Origin: Schmidtea polychroa
Lineage: Eukaryota
Assembly (NCBI GenBank): GCA_044892525.1
Contig: CM097887.1
Span: forward strand, 86,840,397-86,904,396
DNA: 64,000 nt
Direction: 5' to 3'
Part shown: in pieces, positions 1 through 62,347 of the stretch
Numbering within the stretch: the stretch's first letter is position 1
How the letters are laid out: every line of letters starts with the position of its first letter
Program-made: the position numbers and the translations under genes
The notes under the pieces: generated by a model
The model's database searches: none
Told to the model about the DNA's origin: nothing
The model's input: the letters and a program-made list of their open reading frames with translations, nothing else

Positions 1-811
1 TTACAAAAAACTTATACAATTATACTAATTGGAAGTCATAAAAATGTAAATTGTAAAAATTTATAATAAAAGTATAAATTGTAAACATATATAAAAAAAC
101 CTACAATTTGATATATAAACTATAAAATTACACTAATTGGTTTTCAGAAAAATGTAAATTATAAAAACTTATAATAAAAGTATAAATTACAATCCTGCAT
201 ATATCAAAACCTGCCAGTTGATGTAAATTATAAAATTATATTAATTCTGACCAGAAACCATAAATTGGATTTTATAAAATGTAAGTTAAAAACCTTGTAA
301 GAGAAGTATAGATTGTAATATACCATTTGTAATATGAACTTGAAAAATCATATTCTAAACCAAAACCAGAATGGGATTTTTATGAAAATTGTAGATTAAA
401 AAAAAAACTTATATCAGTTGCAGTAGTGTAAATTATAATTACCCAAAGAAAAAACCTATACCTATCTAAATTAGGTTACCTAATAGAAGGAAATAAAAAA
501 TTTCGATAAGTGACCCCCTCATAAACCTACCAAACCCCTAGAATTAGTATTAAATGTATTGCTTATTCACGTCTATTAATAAATATATTAATTATATGTA
601 CCTTATTTATAAAACTTATAGATCATCTACGACTACTACTAAAATATTACTATACATATATTTTTACTTATAAAAATTGCAAATCAGTATATTCATTATA
701 CATACCTTACTTATGGAACTCATAAATCCGCTACGACTATTCATAAATATTTTACTATACATATTGCTTATAAAATTCATAAATTCTTTGTAACTATTAA
801 TAAACCCATAC

Positions 812-813
<2 letters not shown>

Positions 814-841
<28 letters not shown>
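814..841. repeat. (TA)n microsatellite
   Basis: Pure TA run. Similar runs at about 14349-14399, 15960-15983, 26943-26963 and 30457-30515; (AAT)n at about 33931-33971. Confidence 0.95.
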
Positions 842-844
<3 letters not shown>

Positions 845-1339
845 CCTATAGAGTCCATTAACCATCTATCCCTAACTATGATCATGTTATTTATAAATTT
901 ACAAACCATAAGTTTACCGATTAACCCTATAGTACCCTATCTCCAACCATTCATATTACTTAAGCAAACTACTACTTAATCTGTATTTTGGTAAAAAATT
1001 TATAGTTGGAGTTTTATTAAGTGCCCTCATAACCAGCAATATGTAGCCATTCATAATGGTATTAGTGTACTTATCATTTGTAAAATTTATTTTCCAATTC
1101 ATCCTGCAGTATCTTATTTACAAATATCCATACTAATATTACCGAGATATGCTGTTTGTAGGTATATGCTTCTGAGAAATTAATAACTTCAATCACACCC
1201 CCCCCCCCTTATTTTTATAAGCCCTCATACACCTACACTTATATTTATCCTACTGATACCAATGGAAACATAAATTTTCATACTTACAAATTACCCATCC
1301 CCTATTTCCAACTTATATTTGGCATATACTACTTATAAA

Positions 1340-1990
1340 ACTATAACTTATCTGTATAATAACTAGATATACTATTATACTTATACTACTTATAAAATTA
1401 TAATTTAATTACATGTTAATCATTTACACTACTAGACCTATACTACTTATAAAAGTTGTAACTTATTTGTATATTAATTATCTATACTACTATACTCATA
1501 CGACTTATAAAATTATAATTTAATTACATGTTAATCATTTACACTACTAGACCTATACTACTTTTAAAAGTTGTAACTTATTTGTATATTAATTATCTAT
1601 ACTACTATAGTCATACGACTTATAAAATTATAATTTAATTACATGTTAATCATTTACACTACTAGACCTATACTACTTATAAAAGTTGTAACTTATTTGT
1701 ATATTAATTATCTATACTACTATACTCATACGACTTATAAAATTATAATTTAATTACATGTTAATCATTTACACTACTAGACCTATACTACTTATAAAAG
1801 TTGCAACTTATCTGTATATCAATTATATACCTATACTACTTATAAAATTATAATATTTACATATTAATCATTTAATTATAAAAACTGTAACTTATTTGTA
1901 TATCAATTATTACTATATTACTTATAAACTTATAATTATTTTGCATATGAATCATTCACCCTACTAGGCCTACAGTACTTATAAAATAAC
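1340..1990. repeat. Tandem minisatellite, 115-bp period with about 4 near-identical copies and degenerate flanks
   Basis: tataaaattataatttaattacatg recurs at 1391, 1506, 1621 and 1736. Each unit is built from related ctatactacttataaaa sub-repeats. Confidence 0.9.
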
Positions 1991-3153
1991 TTATTCATTA
2001 TACATACCTCTATATCTATCGTGCCTATGAACTTTTCTGGTTAGTTATCTACCTTAAATCCATAGATCAACTATGCCTACCCAAATCCCCTCGGACTGTT
2101 GACGAGCACGTTAATACCTTTCCTATAAAGTATACTAAGAATGTAAAATGAAAAGGTATTGTTGATAAACCGATTAAATCTAACGTCTCTATTCTACGAC
2201 AATAAATAACCTCACCGAAAAGAAAATTGCATAAACGAATTTATTAATAAACAATTTGATATTTGTTGGAAAATCCGCTTCCAAGCTTCACTAAAATAAT
2301 TCCAAAGCGTCATTGAGAGGTGGGCGAATATGGGTCTCAACGCTGGGTTGAAATCAAGCGATCTGGACATACCCTTACTGGACTCGACGGCCGAATGATT
2401 TTTCGACAAATTTCGCTGAACTGAACTTGATGGGAATCTACAAACAATTAGAATATGGAACTTAAAAATAAAAATCAAACCCCATCCAACAATCAACAGC
2501 AAATTTCCTAGACGAGGAACTCATCTTTTGAACCTAGAAATTTTTCTTACAAGATAAATAATTCCGAAAATTTTTAATTATCAAATAAATAATTCCGAAA
2601 ATTTTTAATTATCCCTCCACGACTTAAAACAAAGGTATCCATGCCATCAAGGTCGGGAAAAATTTCTAAATTAATAATTAATTTTTTGTTGCTTAAAATT
2701 ACTCTTGGCAATGATAGAAATAGTACAGTTAAAATAACTACACTTATAAAAAAAAATTTTTTTTTCTTTCATTGAAAAATTTCTTTCTAAGTTAAAGAAT
2801 ATTCTGAATATGTTTTATTGGTTTTATCATTCTTTTCTCATTTATTTTATTAAATTAGTAAACGTAATTAAACTGCGATAATCCGACACAAAAAGAATAA
2901 AAAATGCATTTTATCCTCTTAATATTGTTATTTATTTAAAAGTTATTTTACTTTTATATTACATATTCCTATTTTTAATACTGCTACTAACTACTTCATA
3001 ACTCTAAGTGTTCAATTTCAATTCCGTTAGGGTTGGCACAATAGGAAGAGGACCCAGTAGGTTTAAGAAATAAAGATTATGTAAGGGGTAAAAGGGCGTG
3101 GTTAAAAAGTCGATCACCGGAATTAGAAAGATATTTATCCATAACCATTTAGA

Positions 3154-3537
3154 ATGTCAAACTCCAGAGAGCCAAGTGAAGTTGATCAATGTGAGGCAAC
3201 GGATGCGCGCCTCCTCTCCAGGCACATTTGGCACCACATCCACCGGTGGAGCCAGGGACGGGACCTGGATTGCACAAATCGGGTGATCCGGGAGGGCCCC
3301 GAGGTAAATGCCCCGGTGTGGGTGAAGACCGAGCCGGACAACAATTGGCTCGTCGAGGCCAGAGACCGCACCATGGGTGACATTGCTAGAGCTCAGTGTG
3401 AACTTCGTCTGATCGAGGCTCAGCTCCGTGCCGTCGAAACCGGTCGGCCAATAGAGGAAGTGGAAGTGGAGCCGGTTGCTGGCGAAGAAACGGGGCCGAC
3501 CCCGCAAGATGGCTTCCCGAAACTGAGATCTCGGTGA
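3154..3537 (+). CDS. Hypothetical 127-aa protein, GC-rich and intronless (paralog A1)
   Basis: ATG-to-TGA ORF at about 60% GC in a 20-25% GC background. 49 of the first 104 residues are identical, ungapped, to ORF 6363-6728. Confidence 0.75.
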   Translation: MSNSREPSEVDQCEATDARLLSRHIWHHIHRWSQGRDLDCTNRVIREGPEVNAPVWVKTEPDNNWLVEARDRTMGDIARAQCELRLIEAQLRAVETGRPIEEVEVEPVAGEETGPTPQDGFPKLRSR

Positions 3538-4149
3538 TCTCGGGGACGGTCTTACATTTCATATTGACTCTAGTGATTTTTTTCAATAAGTTGAGTAGGC
3601 CATTGAAATTATTATACGACCAATAAATCTAACCTGTATATTTATATCATAAATTTAACCTCTTTGAAATATAAATTATGAACCTATGTTGAGCTAAGTT
3701 TTCACTCTAAAATAGTTATATAAGTGTGAATTCACATTAATTTCCAAAATATCAAATATAAATCTTAAACGGTTGTAGATAATTTATAGATGTACTCCGG
3801 TCATCAAGTTGAAGTATTATAATTTCTAGCTATTTTTCATGGATAAATGACCATCTGTAAAGTATTGGCCAGTTAAAAATGTAATTTCTGATTTTGTATA
3901 ATTCTTTATTAAGTTGAATAAATATAACTCATAAACATATAATCATAAAATACAATCAATTCTAAATCTAGCATTATGATCTATCAATGTTGAATCGTAG
4001 AGTACTATCAAATTCCAAGTAAAAATCACAATTTATAAATATATATAATCCTACTTTATGACTTTATGCTTTATTTAGTATACACTTCCCAATGCCTAAA
4101 CTGTAAGCTATAATTAAGTCTTTTGCGTAAATGTATCAACTAGGAAAAT

Positions 4150-5023
4150 CTAAATTAAAAACTATGATTTTATATAACCTATAAATAGTTATAGATAAAT
4201 TTTAACTACAAAATATAAATTATAAATAGTCGTATAAAATTTTTTGATTATAAAATATAAATTAAAACTAGTTTATGTAAATTATCTATGTATATGAATT
4301 CTAAAAATATAACCTATAGATAGTTCTAGATAAATCGTGACTACAAAATTATAAATTATAAGCAATTATATAAAATTTTTGATTAGAAAATATACGGTAT
4401 AAATAGTTGTGTATAAATTATACAGGTATCGTGATTATAAAATATAATCTATAATTAGTTATAGATAAATTTGGATTGCAAAATTATAAATAATTATGTA
4501 AAAATTTTTTTTTGATTATAAAATATAAAGTATAAATGGTTATATATAAATTTTGATTATAAATTATAAATTATAAATATTAGGTACAAATTCTTATTAT
4601 AAATTATAAATTATAAATAGTTATAGGTAAATTTAGATTATAAAATAAAATTTATAAATAGTTAAATGTACATTATAAATATATCTTGACACTAAAAATA
4701 CGGATTATAGGTAGTTGCCTGAAAAATTTGACTATAGAAATATAAATTATAAATGGATATATAGAAAGTTTATTATAAAAGGTAAATCGTAAATAGTCAT
4801 ATAAAATTTTATTATAAGATATAATTTAGAAATAGTTATGAATATAAATTATTAATGTAGACAATAAATTATAACGGGTTATAATCAATTCTGACTATAA
4901 AATTATAAAGTATAAATAGCTATAATAGTTTTACATTTAGGCATACGATCCTATGCCAAGAATTTGAAACCTAAAATTTTGGTTAAATTATAACTATGTA
5001 TATAAATGTATATAAATTGAATA
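4150..5023. repeat. Degenerate AT-rich minisatellite of about 40 bp
   Basis: Recurrent ttgattataaaatataaattataaatagttata-type units running into the gap. Confidence 0.65.
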
Positions 5024-5563
5024 NNNNNNNNNNNNNNNNNNNNNNNNNNNNNNNNNNNNNNNNNNNNNNNNNNNNNNNNNNNNNNNNNNNNNNNNNNNNN
5101 NNNNNNNNNNNNNNNNNNNNNNNNNNNNNNNNNNNNNNNNNNNNNNNNNNNNNNNNNNNNNNNNNNNNNNNNNNNNNNNNNNNNNNNNNNNNNNNNNNNN
5201 NNNNNNNNNNNNNNNNNNNNNNNNNNNNNNNNNNNNNNNNNNNNNNNNNNNNNNNNNNNNNNNNNNNNNNNNNNNNNNNNNNNNNNNNNNNNNNNNNNNN
5301 NNNNNNNNNNNNNNNNNNNNNNNNNNNNNNNNNNNNNNNNNNNNNNNNNNNNNNNNNNNNNNNNNNNNNNNNNNNNNNNNNNNNNNNNNNNNNNNNNNNN
5401 NNNNNNNNNNNNNNNNNNNNNNNNNNNNNNNNNNNNNNNNNNNNNNNNNNNNNNNNNNNNNNNNNNNNNNNNNNNNNNNNNNNNNNNNNNNNNNNNNNNN
5501 NNNNNNNNNNNNNNNNNNNNNNNNNNNNNNNNNNNNNNNNNNNNNNNNNNNNNNNNNNNNNNN
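5024..5563. other. Assembly gap (N run)
   Basis: 540 Ns. Confidence 1.
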
Positions 5564-6362
5564 TATCACTATTGTTATCTACCAGAAAATCAAAACCTGA
5601 TCACAATATCGATTTAGGATTTCCCCCCACAACTAAATTTAGCATCAACTCCTTTGCCCCAATAAGAATGATCGTAATTCCAAAAATCTATTTTTAGTAA
5701 CACCCCCCCGGAGAGAATGTTAGGACTATTTATTATAATTGGGAATAGGGGCGGGAGTACATATATATGTATATGGATAGATGTTATTAACCATATTTGG
5801 TTTGAACCAAACTTAGCAGCGGGGACAGCTTAACTATTTTAGTTCCCCTGAAACCAGGAGTCGGATAAAACTTACTCTAATAACCCGAAATGAGGAATTA
5901 AATGTATTTAGATTATCAGGAAAGTGGGGAAACAACTCCTACAAATTATCGAAGCATATAAGACACCTTTCTAAATTACTAATGGGTTGTGAATATATAT
6001 TTTACCAAAAAATTAAATTATTATTACAAGAAATCAAAAGATTTTGGTATTAATAATTTACAAGTATAAAATTGCTATAAATTAATTAAAATTACAACTT
6101 ATTTTAAAATGCAAAGTCTGTACGCCTTTATCATCATTTCATTCGATAAGTTCCATAGACTTCATGTTGTAATCAAAACTCGGCAATACCTTAGCACCAC
6201 CTCTGTTTCGTTTCTCGTCAAAGTTTTCGTCGATTATCATAAAGTTCTTAGGGTCAAACGATAGCGGAGCGATTTAATAGGTGGGGAAAGAGTTAATAAA
6301 GAGCCTGTGTTCTAAGATTCATCTCCATCTGTGCAGAGTGTCTTGATTTTTGCATTGCAGGA

Positions 6363-6728
6363 ATGTCTCACTCGGACGATTATAGTGATGGAGAAGCCGA
6401 CAGGCAGATGATTACCCGGCTCCGCACCCGGTATATCTGGTACCGCATTCACAATTGGAATCGCGGTTTGGACCTGGACAACTTCGGTCCAGTTATCCGA
6501 AGTGGCCCAGAACCTGACTCCCCGGCTTGGGTGAAGACGGAACCCACGAACGACATACTGCAGGAGGCCCGCGATCGAGTGGCTATTGAAGTCGAGGCTG
6601 CTCAAATGCGGCTAAAGAGAAATGAACTACAGCTCCGGGCCAAAAGAGAAGGAGTACCCTTAGAGGAGTTGGAAGATGTCGAGGCACCCCCACGAAAGAG
6701 AGGAAAGCCCCGCAAGTGCCCAACATGA
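6363..6728 (+). CDS. Hypothetical 121-aa protein, GC-rich and intronless (paralog A2)
   Basis: ATG-to-TGA ORF sharing IWxxIHxWxxGxDLD, VIRxGPE, WVKTEP, EARDR and QLRA with A1. Basic C-terminus PPRKRGKPRK. Confidence 0.75.
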   Translation: MSHSDDYSDGEADRQMITRLRTRYIWYRIHNWNRGLDLDNFGPVIRSGPEPDSPAWVKTEPTNDILQEARDRVAIEVEAAQMRLKRNELQLRAKREGVPLEELEDVEAPPRKRGKPRKCPT

Positions 6729-6965
6729 ACCCTTGTCGATCCGTACATTTGTATTGAAACAATTAATATTTGACCTATCTTAATCAGTCTTCGTTTGTAC
6801 CTTGTATAATGATTTAACTAATTGTAATTTTTCTTATATTCATCATTAAATAAAGTATTTCGAGATCAAATTGTGGTTTTTAGTGATTATAATATGCCTT
6901 AGTGATCAAGCGACCGACGTTAATTTATAATTTCACTACATGAATAAATAAATTTCCCTTTTTGT

Positions 6966-7424
6966 ATGGATGCAGTTGATAAATTCCTTTATGTTCTAGT
7001 GTTTAAATTTTTTGAAAACCTGCGGAAAGACCGGGAACAGGCACAAAAACAGGCCGAAGATCTCCGAGCCCGGGTCGACAAGCTCAAAGGGAGGTGCCGA
7101 GAGTTCGAGGGCACCTAGTTCAGTCCCGCAGACATGAAGAAGAAGACTGCACAGATCCTTCAGCTGCAGGCCCAAGTCACGCAAGACCAGATGGAGATCC
7201 GCGCACTAAAATTACAAGTGCGCGCGCTCGAAATCGGACCCAAACCTTCTAACGGTAGTCCGTGAACCCATAGAGTACTCGACAATTATAGTGCCTTGGT
7301 GCGCTCACTTTTTGCGAGTAATCAACCCCTTGGTACAGTACCAACGTTGATTACTCAACGGGTACCAAGCGGAAAACAACGTTGTATTTTGGGTTACGCT
7401 GGTAATGTTCGTTACAATAGTTAA
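6966..7424 (+). pseudogene. GC-rich coiled-coil ORF with two in-frame stops (unit B/C, copy 1)
   Basis: One frame from ATG 6966 to TAA 7422-7424, interrupted by TAG 7116 and TGA 7263. Heptad-like ENLRKDREQAQKQAEDLRARVDKLK and ILQLQAQVTQDQMEIRALKLQVRALE, then RVLDNYSALVRSLF...PTLITQRV...RCILGYAGN. Confidence 0.6.
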
Positions 7425-7629
7425 TACTATGAGAAAAACATGGTCATTATTCATTGATAATTTTAAATTCTTTATCATCACAACCTCTAAAATGATATAA
7501 TTTCACAGGAACTATTATTTTTGCCTCAAACAAATTTACTCCAAATGATAAAGAATTTAAAATTATCAATGAATAATGACCATGTTTTTCTCATATTATT
7601 AACTACGGTATGTGGGTGTTAATGGAAAA

Positions 7630-7884
7630 GGAATATGAGGAACGTTGTGAGGACATTGGAAAAGCAATCTGGTGATAGAGACCGTGTACTATCGGTAGTC
7701 CATGGACCCAAGAGAGTGCTTGCCAATTATAGTGCGGGTTGCGCGCTCACTTTCTGCTGGCACTCACCCTCTTGATACAGCACCAACATTGATCACTCAA
7801 TGGGTATCAACTGATCAACCAAACGTTGTATTCTGGGTTACGCTGGAAACAGCACGACAAGGTAAAATGTTTGATTTCTTTTAA
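7630..7884 (+). pseudogene. Diverged tandem copy of the 3' part of unit B/C (frameshifted)
   Basis: 7690-7850 aligns to 7250-7405 (cggtagtcc, aattatagtgc, gcgctcactt, aacgttgtatt.tgggttacgctgg). Mostly synonymous differences in the copy-1 frame. Confidence 0.6.
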
Positions 7885-7940
7885 CCTACCACTAATATAA
7901 AGGTGGAAAAGGAGTGAATAAAGGAGTGAATAAAAGGAGT

Positions 7941-8757: not shown

Positions 8758-10410
8758 ATGGTGAGTGAATCTTGTGAAATGATTTATTTTTAAAATATTT
8801 TTTAAAATTTTAATCAATTGTGAAAACGTTGATGGAATATTTTATGTAGAAAGAGATCATATCTATAAATATTGGTCAGGCTGGAGTCCAGCTGTCAAAC
8901 GCTGCTTGGGAATTATTTTGCATTGAGCATGGCATTAAAGCGGATGGGTCCATGCATAACATGGTAGAAAATGGTGAATCTGGACAAGATACGTTTTTCC
9001 GACTTTCAGAAACTACTTATGTTCCAAGAGCGGTTTCAGTAGATTTTGAGCCGACGGTCATTGGTAAATTAATATTATATTATGTTTTTAACAATTTGAT
9101 TTTAAGATGAAGTTCGTCTTGGAGCTTATAGGCATTTATTTAATCCAGAACAATTAATTTCTGGCTTTGAAGATTGCGCCAGTAATTTTGCGAGAGGGAA
9201 TTATACGGTTGGGAAATTATTTTTGAAGCCAGTAATGAAGCAGATAATAAAGCAAATTGAAAATTGTGATAGTTTACAAGGGTTCTGTATTCTTAATAGT
9301 TTCGACGGAGGGACAGGGGCTGGTTTTACATCGACTTTGCAGGAAGAATTATCAATGGAATTTGGTAAAAAGCCAAAATTTCAAATTGGAATTTATCCAT
9401 CTAGAAGAATGGCTACAAGTACTGTGTATCCATATAATGCTATTCTCCATACTCATACAACAATGTCTCACACAAATTTAAATACATTAATGGACAATGA
9501 AGCTATTTATGATATTTGTGCTAATAAACTTGGTGTAGATAGGCCAACATACAGCAATATTAATCGAATAATTGTACAATTATTTAGTAGTTTAACCATT
9601 TCAGTACGATCTAGAAATCTTTTGAATAGTGACTTAGATCAATTATGCACCAATCTGGTTCCATATCCTAGAATACATTTTCCTCTTTCACACCTTTCAC
9701 CGTTATTAAACGCATGTAAATCCAGCAAAGAATCAACGGGTATCGGTGATATGACGAGAGATATTTTTGATGCTGAAAATCAACTCGTTCAATGTAATAC
9801 AGCTAATGGAAGGTTTATGGCTTGTGTATTGCAATACCGAGGGCCAATACCACCTACATCTATTAATAAAACTATTTTTGAACTTAAAAGACGAACAGAT
9901 ATAAATTTTGTCGACTGGTGTCCAACGGGATTCAAAATTGGTATTAGCAGCATGCCTTCTGTAAGTCCTCCTGGCAGTGCTTTAGGAGATATGAAAAGAA
10001 CGTTAGCAATGTTATCGAATTCAACCGCTATTGTCGAAACATGGTCTGAATTATTAAAAAAGTTTGATTTATTGTTTTCTAAAAGATCGTTTGTTCATTG
10101 GTTCGTGAGTGAAGGCTTAGAAGAAGGAGAATTTTTAGAAGCCTATCAAAATATTAGATCTCTTGAAAATGATTATGTAGAAATATCTATGTCTTCACAG
10201 GAAATAATGGGCCAAGATAAATCTAGTAAAAGCGATCCGAAAATAATAAGATCAAGTGAACCAACTAGTAAAGTAGATGATTCAAAAAGTACAATTGTAC
10301 AAGAGAAATCTAAAAGTAAAAAATCATCAACTATTTCGAAAAGTATTAAAAGTGGGAACAAGTCACAAAATAATGCATCACCGTTCCACACGGAAATTAT
10401 TAACTATTAA
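8758..10410 (+). CDS. TUBA: Divergent alpha-tubulin (506 aa, 3 exons)
   Basis: Exons 8758-8760 (ATG), 8850-9063 and 9107-10410, with GT-AG introns including the classic alpha-tubulin intron after codon 1. Motifs [70 protein letters not shown]. Confidence 0.95.
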
Positions 10411-10808: not shown

Positions 10809-13800
10809 ATGAAAATGGATGATAATGAATCTGAGATAAGTAGTGAAGGAAGTGATTTTATCGCGACGGATGAAATGCTAACTTATGCTTATGATGATGA
10901 AAGTACCATTAATGAAGAAGAAGATGTTGCTGATGAAGATGAAGTTAATAAACTCAAACTTGTAGATTTTAGTTCCATTAAATCAGCCATATTTATTACA
11001 ACGCTAGGAAAGTGATATGCCAATTGAGGAACTACTACGACTTTATGGTTCACGAATTGAACCTAGTGAACAAGATAATGATTCAGTATCAGAAGATTTA
11101 AATTCTGGTTCTAATTTAGAACACAAAGTGAACTTTTTAATCATTGGTTTAATATTAAATTGTTAATAATTACTGTTAGGTCATTTAATAGCTTGCTGTT
11201 TTCCAAATCATAATATAATTTTATTGAATATGACAAAATTAATAAATTTTTAATAATTTATATATTATATTTAGGATACTAAACATTTTATTTACTAGTT
11301 TAATTCATTAATGTATTTACCTCACATTAACCCTCATTTAAAATTTGTTGATAAAAACGAGATGTGCTGAATTGCGCTTAAAGGCATTTTACAGTGAGTA
11401 TATAAAGATACCGAGACGTTAACCACTTAATGACTTCGAATACATGACGCATAATTTTAGAAAGGAAATAATAATAAATAAAAAACTTCAATGACAAATA
11501 TCGTCAGTAGGAACAGTTATGTTATGTAATATATTTAATAGTGCATGCTGGTGGGTTCTTTTAATTCATCCATTTCACAATCAAGTCATGCTTTCAATAT
11601 AACAAACTATATTCACTATTGGTGCAATATATAAGGGAAATCCCAAACAGTAATATACAGGACATTAACCATCTTGATCCCAGAGATTGAAATCAATAAA
11701 TGAAGGAATGCGCTACGTACCTGCTGAAAAAAATGACAAGCAAATCAATAAAAATAACCGAGAGAGGTAGTGAAAAAACATGAAAAAGGACCCAATTATG
11801 ATTAATGTATAAAGAAACAAACAATTTAAAGAAAAACAAGTGTATATAAGACTAATAAGCATTTTAAAGAAGTTCTAACAAGCTTTTTATTATATCATAA
11901 ATGTTGTGAATTAATTACAATGCAATATCACCAAATTTTGAATGTGGCATCAGAGATAAAGTAAAAATTAAAAACTTTTCTATAAATTTGAATTCACGAA
12001 AAAACAGTTGGGATACCTAAAATAATAAATTAAAATAATTATTAAAATGATTGGGGGAAATAAATGAATATAGAAAGGAAGTTTGTTGTAAATCTCGAAT
12101 TGTGAATTGGAAGCAGAGTGAAAGAAAAAATCTTAAAATGAAAACAATATAACAGAAAAACAAATAAAGGCAATTATTAATTCTTACGTATAAATCAAAA
12201 TAGAAGCTAGAAAACTGAAAAACAAATCAATAAAAGAATTTTTCTAATCTAAGTAGTTTGTCTGAGATAATGAAAACATTCAATAGAAAATAAATTGCAA
12301 TCCCTATTAAACTAAAACTCGCCTAATATGGAATATTGTGTTCAGGACTCACTGAAAGCTGATGATGATCAACAGGAAGATTCTTGTAAAGAAGTCAAAG
12401 ATAACAATTTAGAAACATCAGATAACGAAATAGAAAATGAAGCTCCAAGGGGATCGAATCGGTTATGGTGCAAAGCATTGATAGGTGAATTATGATTCGA
12501 TTGTCAATGGTTTGAATTGTCTGTTAAGAAAATAATTCCAATTACAACTCAGAAGACGATGGAGATTATATTCCGATAATTACCTCGAAATTGTACTCGA
12601 ATGCTGTAAGTCATGAATAATCCCTTTTTCTGGAACGGAATTATAATTATATTAAATGCAACAGAAAATCCGAGTTGGGGATAATTATCAAGCTTTTATT
12701 CCTGGAATCAATAACAAAATATCGCAAAATGACATCTGTAGACAATTGAGGCGAAGTGAAATCCTTCAGTGGAAATGTCTCGATGACAGTGAAAATTTTC
12801 AAACCGACTTGAAACGTTATTTGAAACTGTATGGTGAGGTTAGTGGACAAACTGGACTGATTAATGGCAAAATTGACGANNNNNNNNNNNNNNNNNNNNN
12901 NNNNNNNNNNNNNNNNNNNNNNNNNNNNNNNNNNNNNNNNNNNNNNNNNNNNNNNNNNNNNNNNNNNNNNNNNNNNNNNNNNNNNNNNNNNNNNNNNNNN
13001 NNNNNNNNNNNNNNNNNNNNNTTTTATTTAATTTTGTTTTTATTATTATTATTAATATTATAATTTTTTTAAATTTTATTAATAATTATTTTAATTTTAT
13101 TTAATTTTTACTTTTGTTTTTATTATTATAGCTTTTTATTTTTACATTTATTTCATTTTTATTTAATTTTGCTTTTATTATTATTATTAATATTATAATT
13201 TTTTTTAAATTTTATTATTAATTATTTTAACTTTTTATTTTAATTTAATTTTTTTTTATTATTATTTTATTTTTTAAATTATAATTTACTTGTTTAACAT
13301 TTAATTAATGCTGCTTCCAAGAAATCATCACTATATATTTTTATTATTTTTATTTTATAACTTTTTTTACAGTTGTAATTATTTCAAGTAATTTATTATT
13401 TGCTTCACTCGGGGTTTTATCCTTGTTATTGAAATTATTGAAATTACAAATGAATTTGAGAGCGTAATTCTCAGTGAGATAATACTACATGTATACAAAA
13501 ATGCATATATAAATAAAATCTTCTACATAAACTTGGATTGACAATGTTTTTTCAAGCTCAAAGAATAGCCTGACGCAATGAATCAATATTTGTTATATCT
13601 TGGCTTTTATGAATATGTACCTTCATCAAAATCCATATATTTTCTATGTGATTAACGCTGGTCAATTGCACGTTACAATACATTCATTTTAGAGAAAATG
13701 TCGTGTAAGAGTTGGTGTGTGAATTATAGCGCAATCTTGTTGAAATATTGCGTTAGAGTATAGCTTAAGTAACATTCTTTCCAAAAGAGGGATCTATTGT

Positions 13801-14400: not shown

Positions 14401-15952
14401 CATGGACCATCTGATAAGCGCTGTACAGAGTGATACAGTCACACGAGTGTATGTGCTATGTCCCAAAAGTTGTATCTTTATTGTAATTTCAAACAAATAC
14501 ATTTGTCTTTTCTAACAAGTATTTGCACTTTGTATATTCGAGATATTTATATGTGGCTGTCGAGTTGTTCGTCCTGTGATTTAGCAATTGCCTGTAAACT
14601 AAACGAATAATTTGGTAAATTGTTCTGCAAGCGTGGCGTTTTTATATATATTTTAAATAATTTATAAATAAAAGATGTAAACCAATAGATAAGATTATAA
14701 TTTATCAGTTATTAATTTTCTAATTATCAATTTAGAAAATTTTGATTTATATGAATTTTTTACAATTTAAAATAAATTTTAATAATTTTCATTTAAAATT
14801 TACTCTTTTTAATAGGTATTATATTCATAAAATAATGCTTTCATATTTTATATTGACTTTTAAAAGTTTATCTCTAAATATGTAAATTAAATATAAATGA
14901 ACATTTTGATATTCACAATAACCGTTTAACATGAAATTCGTCATCATTATTTACTATTTTTTATTTTCTCGATAACTAGTAAGATTAAATTTGAGTTTTT
15001 GCAATAAATTCTAGATTTTTTCTCATTGTTTCTTCAGAAAATACAAATATTAAATGCTACTATTCCATTCAACATTTTCACACGTGTTTTTTTTTTGACC
15101 CGAACATTTGAATAAAAAATAATTTTTTTTTGAAACTCAAAAAGAAAATCATTAGAACACGAAAATAAGTTTTTATTATTACAATTAAATAACATACAAA
15201 ATAGATTGCTTCTTAAAAAACAGGAAAATATTTTGTAAAGACAATGTAAATTTTATTTTTAAAACTGTATTTTATATTGCTCCGTGCTGCCTCTAAAAGC
15301 TTTTTATTTTCCGCTACCATAGTCCGAAATTTGTCGCATTTTATTTTTAAATAGTTACAAATTAATAATTCGGCTTTAACATGATCAGGCGTTAAACGGT
15401 TCCTTTTATCCCAACACATTGAACCCATTACTGAAAAAATTCGTTCGACAAAGGAATTACTAGGAGAATGCCGAATAAAAATTCCCTTAACTTCCTCAGT
15501 ATTTGCGCACATAATTGTTCTTTGCTTTTTTCGTTGTCGCTGATATATATAGCTAATATAGGATTTAATGAGCATAGCTCGTGAAATAAATCGTCACCTT
15601 GTGATTCGATGTCCACGTTTAGATACGCACTTATTGCAATACAGCCATTAATATTGGGAACACATTGTTTTATATTAAATTTATTAGCATTCTCCAAAAA
15701 TGTATTTACAAAGTCATACCAATCGTATAAGTATTTCAACGCTCTAGCATATACGGTGTCTGCTTCATTTTTAAATCGTATTTTATTGGCATTCAACAGA
15801 AGCGCTAATGATTGATTTACTATAAAACCGTAAAAGTGTTCTTTATTATAATATTATTTTTTGTAACTTTATTATAGAAACGCATAAATTTTGGATTAAA
15901 TAACCCTGTTTAATTTCAAATTTAATACATACTTTACACACACACATACACT

Positions 15953-33973: not shown

Positions 33974-36445
33974 GGATTCTAAAAATTTAATAACAGTTAA
34001 ATCCAACTCGGTTTTAAGAATCTTCAAATCTGACATAATACAAGTTTTTAATTTTCCACAAAAACGTGCCAACTCACTTATTTAAACAAATTCAAATATC
34101 TAAATCTCCCTTTCTTAAGAATTTTTCCACTATTTCAGCCACTCGATTCTTCTTTCTTTCGTTTCTTCTTGTGAATGTTGTTCGACTCGAGGTAATAGAA
34201 ATCTGACAATTTTATATAAGCCATCGTATTACATACCATCCTTGTGCCTGATCTGCGATTCTTTACGTACGAGTACGTCCTTCCCCACCTTGAAAACACG
34301 AGTGCCCCTCTTTGTCTTATACAGAGCTCACATAGTGTCTGCGGCTTTACTCGAGTTAATCTCGCGTCTTCAATTTCTTTCGCTTTTTGATATCTCAGCT
34401 TGTTTCAGGTTAGAGTGTAGGTTTACACTTCGTCCTATAAATTATCTCAAATGATGATAAACCTGTAGCACTGTCGACTGCTATTTATAGTGAACTCAAT
34501 TCTGGGTAGAGGTACGTGCCAGTTTCTCTCTTCACATTCACCTACCAATGTTGCTGTAATAAGATCTCGTATCGTTCACATGTCTTGTTCAGTTAAATCA
34601 TTTGATTGGGGCCGATAAGGTGAGCTGAATTCCTGTTTGATTCCAAGCTTTTGTAACTTTTGTCTTAGAAAGTTCCCTTCGAAATTGCGGCATCTATCTG
34701 TTAAAATGCTCTACGGTTTTCCGAATCGATAGATCCAACTATTAAGTATCGATTTGAAAAATTTCCCTTCGTCTTGCTTTGTGAATGCATTTAAAGAAAT
34801 CAGTTTGCTAAACCGGTCCACCATTACTACCATATTTTTATGGCGTTTATTTTCATGTAAGCCACATCTATAAAAAATTGTTCTAGAAATTCAGAGCTAT
34901 ATCTAGGAATAAATGTTTCCTTGGTTCTTGTCTGATTGATCTTTCTCTTAGAGCAGATCTCGCAACATCGTTAACAGAGTTTGCTTTCATTAACTCTTTT
35001 ATCAGCTCTTCAATTCTTTTCTCCATGTGCATTGGTTGACGTCGAGGATATTGCATTATTGGGCCTCCTGTTATCCGTATCTCATGTCGAACTAAAGTTT
35101 GTAAATCCCAGATCAAATTTCGATGCCATAAAAATTGCGCCGTATTCCCTGATAATTCCTTCAATATCTTTACTATTCTTACCTGCCATCACTACTAGTG
35201 CTTTATTTATTTTTCTTCATCAGTGTAGATTTTGTTTATCAATGTCGTTTCTATATTATTGAATTTCACTACTTTTACTCCTGTTGGGCTAGAACTGATT
35301 TCTAAACCAAAGTTAGGAATGGGACGAAATGTGTCAGTACACAACACGCATACCCAGCATTAAGTTTACTTGAATAAAAATATATAAAACACTAAGTAAA
35401 CAATGATAATAGAGAGATAATATACTCAAAAATAAAACATCTGAATTAAAAATAAAATAAAACTCGACCAAGAAGTATTACACGAAAACTTACTCAAATA
35501 TAACCGAAAGACGTAACACAACAAAAACAAATTCGAATAAAGGCGATTAGTTAAATTAAAAAAAAGAAAATTAAAGAAAATCTCCATAAAATCTTACGTA
35601 TCGAAAATTATATCAAAATTTTGTATAAAAATCCAGAACAAATCATAAAAATGGCGAAATCCATTATGACCGCCAAATGACCCAATAAAATTTATAAAAA
35701 ATAAATATTTTAGTTTAAAATATAAAAATTTTAGAAAAGAAATCATAAAAAACAATTTAAAAATAAGAAATAGATTAAATTTAACATGGAATGTTCTGGA
35801 AATGCTGAAATCCATCATGGAGGCAAATTTAATAAGAAATAATTCAAAAATAAAATTACAAAAATAAAAAAAAATTCTTACTGAAAAATCGCCATCAAAA
35901 TCGAAAAAAATTAAAAATCGAATGTTCGAGAATTAAAAGAATTCGAGTTTGTTTTAATACATCAATACATACATGTGTACTTGCATACAGAAAATAGGTA
36001 TATATACCAACGCATTTCAGTCACAAAAACACTCTTTTATGCCAAAAACCTTTTGACTCTAATTGGAACCACTACAGAAGCTAACAGTAAGGAAATTTTA
36101 TTGCATTATGTCAACGGTGGGGAAATGCGGCTCTTCGTTGAGTAAACTGCGGCTCTTTGATAATTGAATTTTTGATAATTGAATTTGAAAATTGAATTCG
36201 ATTTTTTTATTTTGAAATTTTTTCAACTGAATTTTTAAAAAAAAATTTTTTGTTGCAATTGTATTTTCATGGTTAGTTCATTTTTACCTGTGTCACAAAA
36301 TAGGTGTAAACAGAATTAAAATTTATAGTGTCATTCGATGGCGGTATTTAGAATCAAAATTTAATATTTCCTTATTACATTCTACCTTGTTTGATTCTTT
36401 TTATAAGCAATATTTAAATAATACATGTCTCACTACACTATATAC

Positions 36446-36515: not shown

Positions 36516-39500
36516 CATTATGTTATTGCTATATTATGATCTCTTATTATTTTTTTTGGTTTTGTATCGGTCTCTTATTAATGAATATTATTATGACCTA
36601 TTATGTTTTTATTTATGTCCAAACAAGAGTGACCAACGTCGTCGTAGACGCATTTTGCTCGCAACATTGATCAGCCTTGTTTCTAACTCAAAAATTTTGC
36701 TCAAGCACCAGAGAATGGGTCTACGACCCTACATGCACTAAACTCGAATCTCTATTACCAGAAGTCACCACGAACTAATGGTGTTCAACCAGGAGTAGGG
36801 CGGGTAAAATCCATCTTGGTAGTTAGTATAGTCACTGGGACTATGAGGACGAGGTAATTTTTGGGGTATTAATCGTGGGTGCATAACACAATAGGACCTA
36901 TCGTACCTTATTCAGTGTAATCGGGAAAATAGGTAAATTTTAATTAATTTGACTTTTCTCAGTAATTTAAATAAATAATCTGTACTCTTAACTTTACTAT
37001 CGAGAACACAACATTAGCGGAATTTAAACGAGAAATATCCAAGACTCACTATTCTACAAAGACACTCTGGTAGTCGGTTAATTGCACGAAAATGTTTAAT
37101 ATGCTTAATATCGAATGTATTTAATATACTCTGAATGATTTGGTTTCTAATTATATCTAATCCAAAAGGTTAATAATCAAGAACCCGAATCTAGTAAAAA
37201 TTCAATTGTATAGTTTATAATGATCTAATTTTGGCAAATTTGATACCCTTAGAAGTAATTTGAATGAGCCCTCTATCTTACTATAAGGGGTAGGACAAAT
37301 TTGGTGTAAACCTGTGCCGCGATTTTAAATATTAATGTCCAGATTATTGGTACGATAAACATTAAATCTTAAATTTAAAGAAAAGTGTATTCTATAGTTA
37401 TATATCGATAGCTATATTATTTGATATTGATTTTAAATCGGTATGAACTAAAATTGTGCCTCATGTAATTATTTATTAATATCTATACCATGTTCTAAAT
37501 CGACATTAGCTAAAAGGTATCTTATGAATTTATATGTTAATGACTATTGTCTTCTACCTTTATACATTGGGGCCTACCTCATTTGATTATTTTATCTTAG
37601 TTCATTTAAACGACTGATTATTGAATCTTCCCCATCTAGAAGGACGTTTCATAAATATATAGATATTAATTATTAAACCACACTTTCTAGAATTATGTTA
37701 TAGGAATTTATATATTAACATATATATGAATTTGATAAAATATAAAAGAACCTCTAAATTATTTCGTAAAAATTTTCATGTTTACTTTTATATGTATTAA
37801 AGTCTAGCTTAATTTTTACAATTTTTAGACTTAAAATTCTAAATCCATTTTATTGTGTTATTATCATTTAATACTATTTAGATAATATCTTAAATAATTA
37901 ATCTAATTGAACTTATTTAATAACAATGGAGTCAAAGGATATTACGAATAAATCAATTAAATTCTCTATATATTGACGTAAACCCCAATCCTAGCCTACT
38001 TATTAATTATATAACTCGTTTAAACCAATTTATTGATTTCCTAAAAATGATACTATAAAATGATTCAAAATTAACATTATTGATTTTTTTTCATGATAAA
38101 ATTAACCAATGGAACCACTTCTATTAATAACAACAACCCTGCGAACCAAAGGTTACCTTCATCGAACTCACTCTGGCTGACCAAATGGACGAATTATACT
38201 CTCTCATAAGCAAGCCAATCACCATAGACTATGTCAGTAGGAACTCTACTCTTCCTATAGAACTTATCACGCCATGCGAATTTAACCCCTGTTATCCCAG
38301 AAGTAGACCCTATGTACGTCAGAAAAGGCAAAGGACCCTTCCCAGGTTCGACTGCCCAAACCAAAGTAGATACCAATATGATCATGATCGAGGAATAATA
38401 AGTGGCAAAATATCTTATAATGCAAATTATTAATTACTTAAATTCGAATGAACCGGTAATAAAATACTTAATAGCTATTTCGTTATGATTAAAATGAGTT
38501 ATTTAATTAAAATTAATAACAAACGAAAGATTGAGTTATTTAATTAAAATCAATAGCAAACGAAAGATTAGATCTAATAAAAATTATAAATCTTGTTAAA
38601 ACATAAAAAAGAATCATGTCCGCCACTGTAGAAGTCTTGTCGAATCAAAGGAGGGCCTCTCTAAAACTCCCCTTGGGTTCAAATCGCTACCCTAAACTTC
38701 CAGGATGCATACAAATATAAATCCAAAGTTTTTGATGAACCGAGATTTCTAAATAGATGAAGCAGATTGGCATATTTTTGGGGGGTCTATCAGGCACCGA
38801 CGTTTCGAAAACAATCCAAATAGATTCCACGATTGGCCTCGAATTTGAAAAGATTGAATGTCTAAAAAATCAAGTGAGAATTTAAAAAAAGTCTAATTAC
38901 CGTCATATTTTGATGAGGATAAGGCCACTTACTACCACTACGGTTAGGGATTGCTAGGGACCGAATATAATTCTAAGACACATAGCAATATCCCTCCCAT
39001 AGTGGGTCTGATATTTTTGGCAAAAATTTTCATTAAGAATGTTGTAACCAAAAAGGAAAAATCATTTAGCGTATGTTTTTTGACCGATTGCTTTAATAAA
39101 TTCCGTTTTATTGTTTCCATTTTTGTTACTTTCAAATAGTTTGGCCAATGATCTCGTTTCTTCAACAGTATCTCCAGCAGTCTCGCATCGCATGCTTTAT
39201 TTGAGATGTCTTGAACAATATCTTTTTCTGATCGTCCTGAATTTACGACTTCAGCTAAAGCTTTCCTTAGACGTATCTCAAAAGCTGCAAAGCGTTCATA
39301 ATCTCCCTGTTCCATTGATTTTGTTCAGTTGTTGATTTTGTAATTGTGAACGTATGTAAGAACCACGCTTTAGCTTTCACATCTGTTGTTTTTGTTTCTC
39401 TGACGTTTCTCCACAATGTCTTTGCTTCTGCCACCAATAACACACCGAAAGAGCTTGTTAATCGCTGTCCATTTGTCAGCAGCCATTCTACTATATCCCG

Positions 39501-39641
39501 GATCCATTCTTCGGCTTCTTTTAAACCTTGTCCATCATATAGTTTAATGTTCAGTGTGAGCATGTCTTGACATGATTTCGGTAGGCATTCCATTAGCAAT
39601 TTTGTAGATTTTCAAATTTCATTGATGTTCTGATTTTCGGG

Positions 39642-55200: not shown

Positions 55201-58200
55201 TATGTATGTTTTGCACAATGTTAATGAATGCAATTACTTACGGTGTGCTAAATTTTTATTTGGAGAGAATATTTCAGAGTGATCTGTGTAACATTTATTA
55301 TTAATGAATTAATTAAATTTTAAATTAATTGTAACTGAATTATTTGTAATATCTAAAATCAACTATTTATAAATTACATTAAAAACTGTGTAATTTAATA
55401 TACTAATAAATATAGTTGATTATAGGAAATGTAATATAGTAATAGCAATGTTTTCTGAAAATATTCAAAGTGGTTTAAATATTCGATTTAACAACGAGCA
55501 GATTTTTAAATTAAATAAAGTTTCTAAAACATCTTTGTATTCTTACAACCTGATACCCCTTTTGAATAGCTCAACCAAAATTTGCACCTCAAATATTACT
55601 CCCATTATTAATGTTATTTTAAGTATTATTGACAACCATATTATGATTATTTCTTATTGACACTCAAATTTTCTTTCATGTTAAAAATGTTTGATAGCAA
55701 AATTTAAAAATAAAATTAACCAAGTTATAATTATTAATATTTCAATATTTATTAATAACAAAAAATTAATTATTTAATCACAAATTTCGAAAAATAAAAT
55801 TACGTATGTATATAAACCTATTTATTGAAATATAACATTCTCAAGTAACAACATTTTCGTCGATAAATAAAAGTTTAGAAAATGTTGCATGAGAATATTA
55901 ATAAAATTCAAAAGTGTTCACAGTTCAGTTATTTACAATTGACTACAAGACAATACAGCGCTTTCCGTACTTACAAACACGCGATGTATTTGCTTCCCAC
56001 TGTCATCAATCCAGTCAAATGTTTGAGCATTTAGATAATTTATATACAATGTATTTATATATCAATCTATATTACTCATTTTATTAATAATTCATTGTAT
56101 TTTGTAATTGGTTTGAATTAGTTGATATATCTCGGAAAATTCATAGCAGACAAATGCAGCATATATTATCACATGTATCATTCTATTTTCCTTTTATTAG
56201 TTTTCATTAATATGCACATCTTAAAAATCAACATTAAATAAATTGTTCAAAAAAACAAGTAATAATAAACTATGACGAAAGCGTACTATAACTTCATTTA
56301 ATCTAGTTGTTTAAATGTCAAAAGCAACATGTTGTCTCTGATAAACTCGCTCTGGTATTGAGCATCATTTTCTGTGGAAACATCAGCTAAAAGCCTTGGA
56401 CTTGATTCCTCATATAGTAATAACTCATGTTCATGGATAACGGCAAGCATAAAGAGATTCGTGTCCAAATTTCCATGCGTCTGTTCCAGTTTTATTGTTC
56501 AAATATATAGAAATTCATATTTGGATAATGGATCAACATTTTTAAAATCCATATCATTTTCCATTACGAAATTAATTAAACGAATTTAAAAAATTTTATT
56601 TTTAAAACTCACAAAAAACTTACAAAATTCAAACAACTTGATATAAAAAATCCAAAGATATTATCAAAACTGAAATCTCCAAAATTCGATAATTAAAACT
56701 CGACCCAAAATAAAATTCGATAATAAAACTCCAAAATTACACTGATCGCGCCTGTGTGCGCATACAAAAAACAAACACCATCTCCGAATCCAACGAGCAC
56801 ACAGACGCGAATTAACGCCAGGATTGACCACTAGTATCCCGTGTCTTATTAGGTTGACATAAGGGTTATGTCGTATTTAAAATAAATAATTAACAATAAT
56901 TATAACCAAAGAAATGCATTATGTAATTTAAGTGAATTGTTTTTTGAATTTTAAAAATATTTATAAATTCAGATAACTTAACATTCATAATTTCAAAGAA
57001 AATTTGGATATATTAATTTTATTAAAAGTGTTGAATGTTGGTTTGAAAGACTGGATAATTTGACATAATTATATTATTTTTTTAAAGTGCTCCATTGTCA
57101 ATTGATAAAAAGCCTTTGGAATTATTGAAATATAACTAATTGATTATTGAATGAATTATGAGACATATAAATATGAAGCAAAGAAATATAATTAATGCAG
57201 CTGAACTTAAAGATTATATATAATGTAGAAATCTTACCTCGACGCCGAGCCAGATTCCGTGTGGTTAAAATGCGCATTTTGTGAAGACGGCATATGCAAA
57301 CCAACCCTAACACCACAATGAGTAAACACAAAATGACACTAACACTTGATACAAGTATAAGTCGAATGTGAGTAGTATTATAATATGGTAATGTTAGATC
57401 GCAATTACGCTCATCACTGCCATCTCTGCACGTAATCGTTCCATCACATTTTAATGACTCAGTAATGCACCTAGAAGGGAAACTTTGACAAAGGAATGTT
57501 TTATTGTGTGAACCACATTGGACAGGATCACAGTACATCTGTAAAAAAGCAAATTTTATGAGGACTTACACTTAAAAAATAAAAACATTAATACATTATA
57601 AGTACTTAATAAGTGTGAATATTCGGGTGAAATATTTTGTAAATTTTTTGATTTCATGTAAGCTGAGTTAAATTTCACCACTAAGTAGTCACTATCAAAA
57701 TATTATTTCTTTCTGTTAAAATGTTATTTATCTTTATACATATTGTCATTTCAATAAATTTGATGAGTTTCATATTTATAACAATTTATTTATAAGGCAT
57801 GTGTTTTGGATTATAAAATAGGAATAAACGGTTTTAATAACTCATCTCATTTGAAAGAGCTTAACCACACAAACGAACTTTTAATATTATCTACTGATAA
57901 AAAGAATTTGTAACTCTATGGGAGTAGAAAGAGAAACGAGGTTTGGCTGGGACGTATAATTCTAACCTACATGTAATTTAAGCAAGCTAATTTACTTCAT
58001 ATATCCTAAAAAATACTAAAAAAAGTCGAAGTGAAGACATATTTTCTTGTAGGAAGACCAAGCATATCATTATTTATTCGATTGTCTGAGTAATTAGTTT
58101 CAGGCATTGAATGCTTATAATATTGGATATCCTCTTTTAAAACAAAGTATTCCTCGAATACCAACTAATATTTGAAACGCCATAACTCTTCAAGTATCTT

Positions 58201-61182: not shown

Positions 61183-62347
61183 CTGTAAAAACCCAACAAA
61201 TAAACATCGGTCTAATGTTACGAATAGATTATAAACTCGATACTCTCAAATGGCAAACGATTTACATAGTTTCACAAAACATAGTTCATATACAAACAAG
61301 ACGTAGAAAATGAGAGGTTTCAACGACTTCAAAACGATTTAATAAAAGTTAAATAAATATTATGTTTCTAAGAGAAAATGGTAGAAAATGAATTAGAAAT
61401 TAAACTCATTTATCCATGTGCATTCAGCCGACGACTTATAAACGAGTGGCATTGCCATAGAATAAAGGATGGTAGAAATCTACCGCTTACACTTTACACT
61501 AGGGTTTTCAAATATTCAGATTTTCTATAACCAAGGCTTTCGAATATAAATTTCAGATTTATCCGGAAGATACCGGATAACAGTATAAAAATAAACAAAT
61601 AACATTGGACTAATTTTATTATTTATAAATAAAATTTAAAATGTATAATCATAGTATTTGATTTTTTTGATTTAAATAATAATATTGTGGGAACACTAAT
61701 ACATTAAGTGATGCACAAGGAAGACGAGATTTAGTTCTTGTACACAAATTTTCAGAAACCGAAAGAGTTCTTTCGCAAGTATATTGAAGTTGGCTTCATT
61801 ATTTTCAATATCACACACATCTATTCAAGATTTAGTGTTCTAGAAAATATTAAATTCTTGGTCTAAAGTACAGCTATCATACTGGCCTCATTTTAAATTT
61901 ATCAATTTAATTCTTAAATTAATTTTATTTCTGATTGAATTCTTCACACTGAATTTCTATTTCAGTTTCCAATTGCTACATAGTCTCACCAGGGAAAATC
62001 TTTTCATAAAGACTGTAATAAAACTAAGAATAGATTTTGTTGAACCATTTGTTGAAGTTGTGTCAACAAGATGTTTTATTAAAGCTGGTTAATTCTGACT
62101 ACTCACGTATGTGTGCGCACACTTCTTATTGTCTGAGTACAGACACGAGTAGTTGAGTTTTGATTTGTATTGGAATTTTCCGACTTTTGTTTCTTGAATA
62201 ACGTTTTTTTTGGTGTTTAAAAACGTCGTTTTTCTGAGATTTTCGGTTTGGATTTGAATTTCTTTTGCTGAATGTTGTTTTTTGTTTGTGGAATTTTGAT
62301 ATTGAAAAAAAAATCCTTTTCAGAGTCTTCCTATTTCAATTATTGAT

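Follow-up and report, generated by a model that had tools for sequence, protein, structure and literature searches.

A conserved accessory gene inside the long terminal repeats of Burro-type giant Ty3/gypsy elements in Schmidtea polychroa and the putative nuclear protein it encodes

The window analyzed here, a 64,000-nucleotide stretch of contig CM097887.1 of the planarian Schmidtea polychroa (GCA_044892525.1, positions 86,840,397 to 86,904,396 of the forward strand), carries near its start two same-strand open reading frames (ORFs) for small related proteins of 127 and 121 aa, which we name WVKTEP proteins after a shared motif. As an earlier note made from the sequence alone had described, the two proteins (copy 1 and copy 2) align without gaps from Met1, with 49 identities over 104 residues (E 5e-30). 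The GC content that the note put at about 60% is 59% for copy 1 and, slightly lower than claimed, 55% for copy 2, against 33% for a tubulin ORF in the same window. Each ATG is closely preceded by a pyrimidine-AG (YAG), 1 nt upstream in copy 1 and 2 nt upstream in copy 2, and both proteins contain a VKTE motif with its lysine at position 58. A tacattt..tattga motif does follow both copies, yet it is not a family feature, since a pattern search recovered it in only 4 of 97 unique downstream regions. Positions 5024-5563 of the window, between the two ORFs, are N letters. Our analysis reveals that both ORFs derive, in decayed form, from an accessory gene located inside the ~5-kb long terminal repeat (LTR) of Burro-type giant (35-36.5 kb) Ty3/gypsy elements.

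Three queries, the two window copies and a member of a third subtype, were searched against the S. polychroa genome, and each returned at least 150 matches (2181, 2680, and 2565 candidates, respectively), numbers that are lower bounds. Many of these matches form same-strand, near-identical pairs ~30 kb apart. When the first 10 pairs were compared, eight proved to be direct repeats of 4.3-5.7 kb that share 99.4-100% identity, have TG..CA ends, and are flanked by a 4-bp target duplication. Of the other two, L093/L094 was rejected as a segmental duplication, and in the second the ends did not match. A 4-bp target duplication was found in 7 of 10 further pairs, bringing the total to 15 of 20, and paired LTRs are overall mostly 99.3-100% identical. 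The same primer-binding-site-like run lies 3' of the 5' LTR in eight pairs of the first set and in 9 of the 10 further pairs; it presumably resembles a tRNA-Pro site. Among 20 single copies fetched with 7 kb of upstream DNA, 10 are solo LTRs with a target duplication, and the LTR 3' block is present downstream of the ORF at 73 of 90 search loci. The WVKTEP ORF starts ~1.4-1.5 kb before the LTR 3' end and is followed by a second LTR gene (~155 aa), detected in 91 of 99 unique regions. In GC content, the two LTR genes (56% and 52%) stand well above the polyprotein (40%) and the whole LTR (35%) (L077:6822-7867 vs L079:282-9998).

Element interiors were read, in separate stretches, for three LTR pairs. 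Two of the three contain a zf-CCHC gag, a MATH domain, and a Monjiviricetes-type fusion glycoprotein ahead of protease, reverse transcriptase, RNase H, and in part integrase (PR-RT-RH-IN), together with ankyrin, TRAF, and BIR-RING domains. The Pfam order PR-RT-RH-IN could be followed through IN in one element and through RH in the second, and the total lengths are 36.5 kb and ~35 kb. Since this layout equals that described for Burro/GYPSM1 in section 7 of PMC6431247, i.e., more than 30 kb, long LTRs with tandem repeats, a CCHC gag, and an envelope in frame between gag and pol, we assign the host element to the Burro type, by layout and not by sequence identity to the published Burro1-4. The likeness extends to the MATH, ankyrin, and BIR domains, to the accessory ORFs, and to the very high copy number. 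In contrast, the text of that section names no LTR gene, no AT-hook/SUMO-site protein, and no splicing scheme.

The dN/dS (nonsynonymous to synonymous substitution) sample consisted of 55 stop-free copies of 67 unique ones, 12 being left out for stops. For the window pair, dS is 1.64 and dN 0.59. Ratios are 0.14-0.29 in the pair bins with dS above 0.1 and 0.56 in the bin below, and third codon positions differ about twice as often as the others (0.49 vs 0.26 and 0.22; 2775 pairs). Changes common to at least three copies have a dN/dS of 0.16 (type 1) and 0.12 (type 2), as opposed to 0.50 and 0.91 for singletons. Low ratios for shared changes and near-neutral private ones form the pattern of a transposon gene, which is under selection in replicating lineages and free after insertion. 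The purifying selection suspected earlier is thus real, but it kept the protein while elements transposed and acts for the element, not for the host.

The note had inferred a lineage-specific or horizontally or virally acquired nuclear protein family, and a tandem-duplicated host family of this kind would indeed fit the high GC content and the purifying selection. However, every copy examined in context sits in an LTR or a piece of one, stops occur within 117 codons in 17 of 92 unique copies, and the near-neutral private changes point the same way. For the family as a whole this reading is refuted, and we leave it next to no probability. The ORFs are instead LTR cargo of a giant Ty3/gypsy element. 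The note had foreseen that they might turn out to be ordinary transposon cargo such as gag or ORF1; cargo they are, but neither gag/ORF1 nor any other named transposable element protein.

As for the protein, motif counts were taken from 92 unique copies, 75 of them stop-free; these are not independent, because they are related and similarity to the queries decided which were sampled. In the stop-free copies, V57 and K58 are invariant (75/75 each) and E60 (73/74), P54 (73/75), and P61 (72/74) nearly so, while position 59, the x of the psi-K-x-E SUMO acceptor consensus, varies (Thr in 59, Val in 13, other residues in 3), which is as the consensus predicts. The VKTE motif noticed in the window copies is therefore conserved across the family, although psi-K-x-E is short and common, so that its conservation defines a predicted SUMO site and is no proof of modification. 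An internal 261-aa accessory ORF of the element (L081:7612-8394) likewise has a psi-K-x-E-P run (IKQEP). Near the C terminus, an AT-hook core, RGRP, is present in 73 of the 92 unique copies, and the Gly and Pro of this basic run are conserved in 73/75 and 72/75 stop-free copies. Neither window copy has the intact core: the tail of copy 1 is frameshifted, leaving the KKRGRPRK codons (3482-3505) in another frame, and copy 2 reads RGKP. The PPRKRGKPRK run that had been called NLS-like (for nuclear localization signal) is accordingly a nuclear-type tail, but actually a decayed form of this family-wide core. The RGRP core fits the HMGA AT-hook consensus, which has a central RGR (excerpt of PMC11354804), and the WVKTEP protein shares with HMGA and other AT-hook proteins, including EBNA1 of Epstein-Barr virus (EBV), a basic R-G-R-P core, basic flanks, and an adjoining acidic stretch (same excerpt). 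It differs from them in having one hook instead of several, a helical N-terminal part of no known family, and a match under the Pfam cut-off. AlphaFold predicts helices at residues 6-33 and 64-96, and a homodimer prediction scored 0.17.

Consistent with the earlier statement that no domain could be recognized, no Pfam match exceeded its cut-off; DUF5551 was matched by 19 of 41 members below it (best E 0.0029). A search of 5.8 billion proteins, confined to lengths of 66-212, yielded no homologue at E<=0.001 (six candidates). A profile of 41 copies run against 1.84 billion proteins gave one match (E 4.5e-5), to a 2384-aa low-complexity repeat protein, which we judged spurious. The ESM Atlas search gave no usable match, the PDB sequence search a single one at E 0.27, and a Foldseek search of viral structures, with a low-confidence model as query, none at E<=0.001. 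Among known transposable element proteins (gag, ORF1, env), there was no Pfam match over cut-off and no relative in sequence or structure.

The acceptor-like sequence noted just before the two start codons is real: of 92 unique copies, 88 have a YAG 1-2 nt ahead of the ATG, compared with a background of 4.8% (961/19998 upstream positions), and it has been kept although upstream DNA differs widely between subfamilies. The spacing splits by type, being 1 nt in type 1 and 2 nt in types 2 and 3 (Table 1). At least seven element ORFs, including most of the remaining accessory ones in the two elements read, have an AG 0-3 nt before the ATG. Such an AG precedes the RING, 151-aa, TRAF, IAP, 532-aa, and 328-aa accessory ORFs of the two elements read (L077:8990; L081:2497, 3042, 4607, 5868, and 8474). 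In the second LTR gene, the frame of the 89 regions with an aligned start opens directly after the acceptor with an invariant TG (the AG itself being lost in two) and has no upstream ATG; an upstream exon ending in A is therefore required. This A was predicted beforehand from the invariant YAG↓TG (the arrow marks the splice site) and then found: a donor, A↓GT(A/G)(A/G)G, is located at ~730 of the LTR, downstream of a TATA-like block that is itself conserved and just where sequence conservation breaks off. The donor with A at -1 is present in 7/7 aligned LTRs and in 24 of 25 LTR 5' blocks, the pattern having stopped at an earlier site in the exception. A leader ATG, in a conserved TATGCCA, is in frame with the WVKTEP ORF in 30 of the 37 LTRs having both sites (41 tried). 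In types 2 and 3, the frame matches in 22 of 23 (leader lengths of 31, 34, 37, 40, 43, and 46 vs one of 44), and in type 1, where the spacer is 1, the commonest leader lengths shift phase to match. Upstream of copy 1, the in-frame leader and the donor are still present. A mini-intron of 36 nt ahead of the second LTR gene, possible in two copies, was rejected, as it is not conserved across subfamilies.

These features make it quite probable that the gene is expressed by cis-splicing, with the element providing the leader. Transcription of a short leader exon would be driven by a TATA-like promoter at ~650 of the LTR, and the exon's donor at ~730 would be joined across a repeat-rich intron of 2.1-3.7 kb to the acceptor in front of the WVKTEP ORF, which would probably gain 10-17 in-frame codons. 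For the second LTR gene, this donor would also give the first letter of the A↓TG start codon. The description of the ORFs as intronless, while accurate for their uninterrupted frames, is thus probably incomplete, given the putative upstream leader exon. Of the cis- or trans-splicing proposed earlier, cis is favored. Were the acceptor to take the host spliced leader, the accessory genes would form an operon, which the short spacers between accessory ORFs could accommodate, and planarians do trans-splice, with flatworm leaders all ending in ATG (excerpt of PMC12582326). But this terminal ATG would be out of frame with both the WVKTEP ORF (spacers 1 and 2) and the second gene (YAG↓TG), and the LTR itself offers a cis donor that supplies the needed A in the right phase. 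The probability that we allow trans-splicing is slight indeed.

Contigs from run X1, RNA by guess and a small share, cover both LTR ORFs at mostly <90% likeness, but none extends over the 290 nt upstream and their joints have unknown letters between, so that neither expression nor splicing is demonstrated. Among the contig rows listed, from runs that are RNA only by guess, no end bears a spliced leader. Contigs from run X6 have poly(A) loose ends at LTR positions ~350 and ~389 (L082:3665 and 3704), in A-rich DNA, which may mark the mRNA end of the last internal accessory gene or reflect internal priming. The end at L082:3704 lies 21 nt behind an AATAAA.

Taken together, the best explanation, and one we consider probable, is that the LTR accessory gene is selected, leader-spliced, and codes for a likely nuclear AT-hook/SUMO regulator of the element's promoter. 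The conserved hook, SUMO motif, and heptad helix make a nuclear regulator likely, and from them we infer the functional steps. The small nuclear protein would bind DNA or chromatin via its C-terminal AT-hook, while helix 6-33, with its Trp, His, and Arg residues, and heptad helix 64-96 would make contact with a target or partner, a division of labor that we rate at slightly better than an even chance. As a single hook is little specific in AT-rich DNA, specificity would come from the N-terminal helix or from a partner, and K58 is predicted to be SUMO-modified. Acting in this way, the protein would switch on or protect the element's own promoter. That the effect is positive is offered tentatively, by analogy: the protein may be a transactivator or an anti-silencing factor against host nuclear PIWI/H3K9me3, much like the regulators of complex retroviruses. 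Repression of BURRO elements by nuclear PIWI takes place at the chromatin level (excerpt of PMC8532177), and SUMO, according to a partial source text, joins PIWI-interacting RNA targeting to heterochromatin in Drosophila. With the promoter, the leader, and the gene all present in each LTR, a solo LTR would be able to express the gene by itself. The fullest version, in which each LTR is a self-contained two-gene unit, its first gene a SUMO-regulated AT-hook transactivator or anti-silencing factor supplied in trans by solo LTRs against nuclear PIWI, strikes us as rather doubtful.

Several observations weigh against a leader-spliced nuclear regulator. The relatedness of the copies and their choice by similarity inflate the motif counts. 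The best Pfam AT_hook match scores 15.0 bits vs a cut-off of 17.4 (E 0.023), and at E<=1 the model matches 18 of 41 members, leaving 23 without a match. Five type-1 copies have a common hook-less tail; these frameshifted tails (L001, L003, L007, L008, and L027) represent one sub-lineage or repeated slippage at a short repeat. A single hook would moreover have little specificity in a ~70% AT genome, the inferred intron of L077 itself being 69% AT. AlphaFold gives no confident fold (AF2 pTM 0.32), and no homologue or fold supporting any function emerged from the protein, PDB, ESM Atlas, and Foldseek searches. As for splicing, the type-1 leader is in frame in 8 of 14 LTRs only, five of these from one young subfamily, and out of frame in six; stops occur in 4 of the 30 in-frame leaders, whose peptide sequence is not conserved; in four rows the leader lies at a distance of >5 kb and could be part of a different LTR; a spliced transcript was not seen; and the transcription start and U3/R/U5 borders are inferred. 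Finally, one of the three interiors read held Polinton-like DNA (DNA_pol_B_2) in place of gag-pol. The pair concerned (L068-L074, G000:C1:262.435-262.472 Mb) has LTR stretches 99.9% identical and 29 kb apart, and just beyond it is an ORF that we take to be histone H3-like.

The same gene and splicing could also serve other ends. HMGA is present in retroviral pre-integration complexes, and the WVKTEP protein might be an HMGA-like tether for the pre-integration complex or cDNA (complementary DNA), steering insertion to AT-rich chromatin and to other LTRs. The single AT-hook with its acidic stretch and the repeated nesting of LTRs in one another around the window would agree with this, as would the tethering of EBV genomes to chromosomes by viral AT-hooks (excerpt of PMC11354804). 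Target duplications, however, are of mixed base content and not plainly AT-only. A SUMO site flanked by prolines is, besides, more typical of transcription regulators, and we regard a tethering role as unlikely. The opposite of an activator, a SUMO-dependent auto-repressor or copy-number brake made by solo LTRs too and dampening the element, would account for the strict psi-K-x-E-P conservation, for the tie between SUMO and heterochromatin silencing made in the partial source above, and for the fact that half of the fetched single copies are solo LTRs keeping the gene. Near-neutral private changes nevertheless mean that inserted copies are not kept by host benefit and that selection falls on replicating elements, which makes a brake quite unlikely. 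Very unlikely, in our estimation, is a Rev/Rex-like regulator of splicing or export, with the basic tail binding RNA to balance spliced accessory against unspliced genomic RNA. AT-hooks can bind RNA (excerpt of PMC11354804, section 1.2), and so many element ORFs with an AG before the ATG would need a switch, but the conserved Gly and Pro of the basic run suit a hook better than an arginine-rich helix, and the longer basic tail belongs to the second LTR protein.

Having set out a leader-spliced nuclear regulator as the preferred reading, we return to the window (Table 1). Its two copies lie in separate LTR pieces, and their 3.2-kb spacing consequently results from nesting and deletion, not from tandem gene duplication. 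Both are older insertions, since their closest sampled relatives differ at 4.2% (copy 1) and 8.0% (copy 2) of bases; expression of these damaged copies themselves appears doubtful. The type-2 piece begins at about LTR position 1440, with the promoter and leader lost, and has an internal deletion near 7236. The remnant of the second LTR gene that it carries has an acceptor AG at 6998-6999 followed by TG, a stop at 7116-7118, and a deleted 3' part. Pairing of the terminal block at 7689-7891 with the LTR of copy 1 is not supported, as the flanks differ (ctaa vs ttat before L075:2632).

Table 1. Features of the Burro-like LTR pieces in and next to the window (window positions unless a locus is given)
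Feature	Position	Strand	Basis or remark
Type-1 Burro-like LTR remnant with copy 1	1..3580	+	blastn to type-1 LTRs, 83-95% at 9-772 and 2655-3580
LTR start of type-1 remnant	L075:2632, upstream of window	+	LTR comparison
Nested 5.3-kb solo LTR splitting the LTR of copy 1	L075:3076-8342		target duplication gtaa
TATA-like block, leader, and A↓GT donor retained in the LTR of copy 1	L075:8550-8648	+	LTR comparison
57/58-nt (115-nt) AT-rich tandem array in inferred LTR intron	1317..1986	.	matches type-1 LTR array
Splice acceptor (AG 3151-3152) and 1-nt spacer	3145..3153	+	YAG+1 in 30/31 unique type-1 copies
WVKTEP ORF copy 1 (type 1), open frame	3154..3537	+	ORF call, alignment
Proline-flanked psi-K-x-E SUMO consensus (VKTEP); codon of K58 at 3325-3327	3322..3336	+	family alignment
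Type-2 Burro-like LTR piece, 5'-truncated	3583..7405	+	blastn to L134, 78-97%
40/41-nt AT-rich tandem array of type-2 LTR	4169..4924	.	matches L093, L134
Splice acceptor (AG 6359-6360) and 2-nt spacer	6353..6362	+	YAG+2 in 58/61 unique type-2/3 copies
WVKTEP ORF copy 2 (type 2), open frame	6363..6728	+	RGKP in place of family RGRP
Second LTR gene, broken remnant	7000..7236	+	elsewhere in the family, a coiled-coil/basic protein of ~155 aa
198-bp element with 66-nt inverted arms (95%), probably MITE-like (miniature inverted-repeat transposable element)	7413..7610	.	at end of type-2 LTR piece
3' terminal block of a further LTR, ending CCA at 7891	7689..7891	+	LTR comparison
Separate 5' piece of Burro-like LTR: TG start, TATA-like block, A↓GTAAGG donor	35282..36070	+	

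The surroundings are crowded, with at least six LTRs or LTR pieces packed or nested inside 28 kb (L075, L076, and window 1-7891). Just upstream of the window, two identical type-3 copies lie 23 kb apart (G000:C3:86814112 and 86837206; L097 and L098), the latter being a solo LTR between target duplications that belong to it alone; a local duplication of L097/L098 is likely. The tubulin gene at 8823-10410 (+) is divergent, with a short first intron, a long charged tail, and Pfam Tubulin and Tubulin_C matches, and we presume it to be of the alpha type. Open frames at 15213-15853 (-) and 38944-39611 (-) are presumably hAT transposase and gag-like remnants, and we take exon-like frames at 12656-13063 (+), 57122-57565 (-), and 60831-61211 (-) to resemble an ELM2 domain and LDL-receptor class A repeats with a transmembrane helix. 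No tRNA genes were found within the window.

Small accessory proteins made from spliced RNAs that start at a common 5' donor are well known from complex retroviruses, as in foamy virus Tas/Bet and human immunodeficiency virus (HIV) Tat/Rev/Nef, and mouse mammary tumor virus (MMTV) sag and HIV nef are coded in or overlap the LTR, in U3, and are read from the 3' LTR. The WVKTEP gene resembles these in encoding a small accessory protein, in its inferred common-donor spliced RNA, and in being LTR-coded. Unlike sag and nef, it lies downstream of an inferred promoter and donor in each LTR, which would make even a solo LTR complete; the WVKTEP protein showed likeness to complex-retrovirus regulators neither in sequence nor in fold. 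Family-wide extra ORFs of unknown origin, conserved like core genes, are also described in the plant LTR retrotransposons Athila, Grande, and RIRE2, but these are internal, mostly between pol and the 3' LTR, and not inside the LTR (excerpt of PMC7264820). The Burro-type element and its in-frame envelope are already known (PMC6431247, PMC13524379). GAG-ENV-POL elements are noted in Platyhelminthes in PMC13524379, the available part of whose main text contains neither the name Burro nor an LTR gene, and Burro is mentioned once in the available part of PMC11410931. In the literature on Burro and on LTR-borne or AT-hook accessory genes, we found no description of the LTR gene, which Grohme 2018, Repbase GYPSM1, or supplements may annotate. 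To this our analysis adds, for the LTR gene, its AT-hook, the pattern of its SUMO motif, and the coupling in frame between donor and acceptor.

For genome annotation, these results are a warning that the WVKTEP genes, which look like an "orphan gene family", are cargo of a transposon. Planarian genomes are shaped by Burro elements, which nuclear PIWI keeps in check (excerpt of PMC8532177), and a selected, motif-rich 14-kDa protein coded in every LTR offers a handle on their self-regulation. Should the protein regulate positively, it would be one of the rare cases in animals of a retrotransposon-encoded counter to host silencing, and a Tas/Tat-like regulatory circuit would have evolved independently in a Ty3/gypsy element of a regenerating animal. 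Solo LTRs, usually seen as bare promoters, would then be protein-coding units, of which hundreds to thousands could supply the protein in trans.

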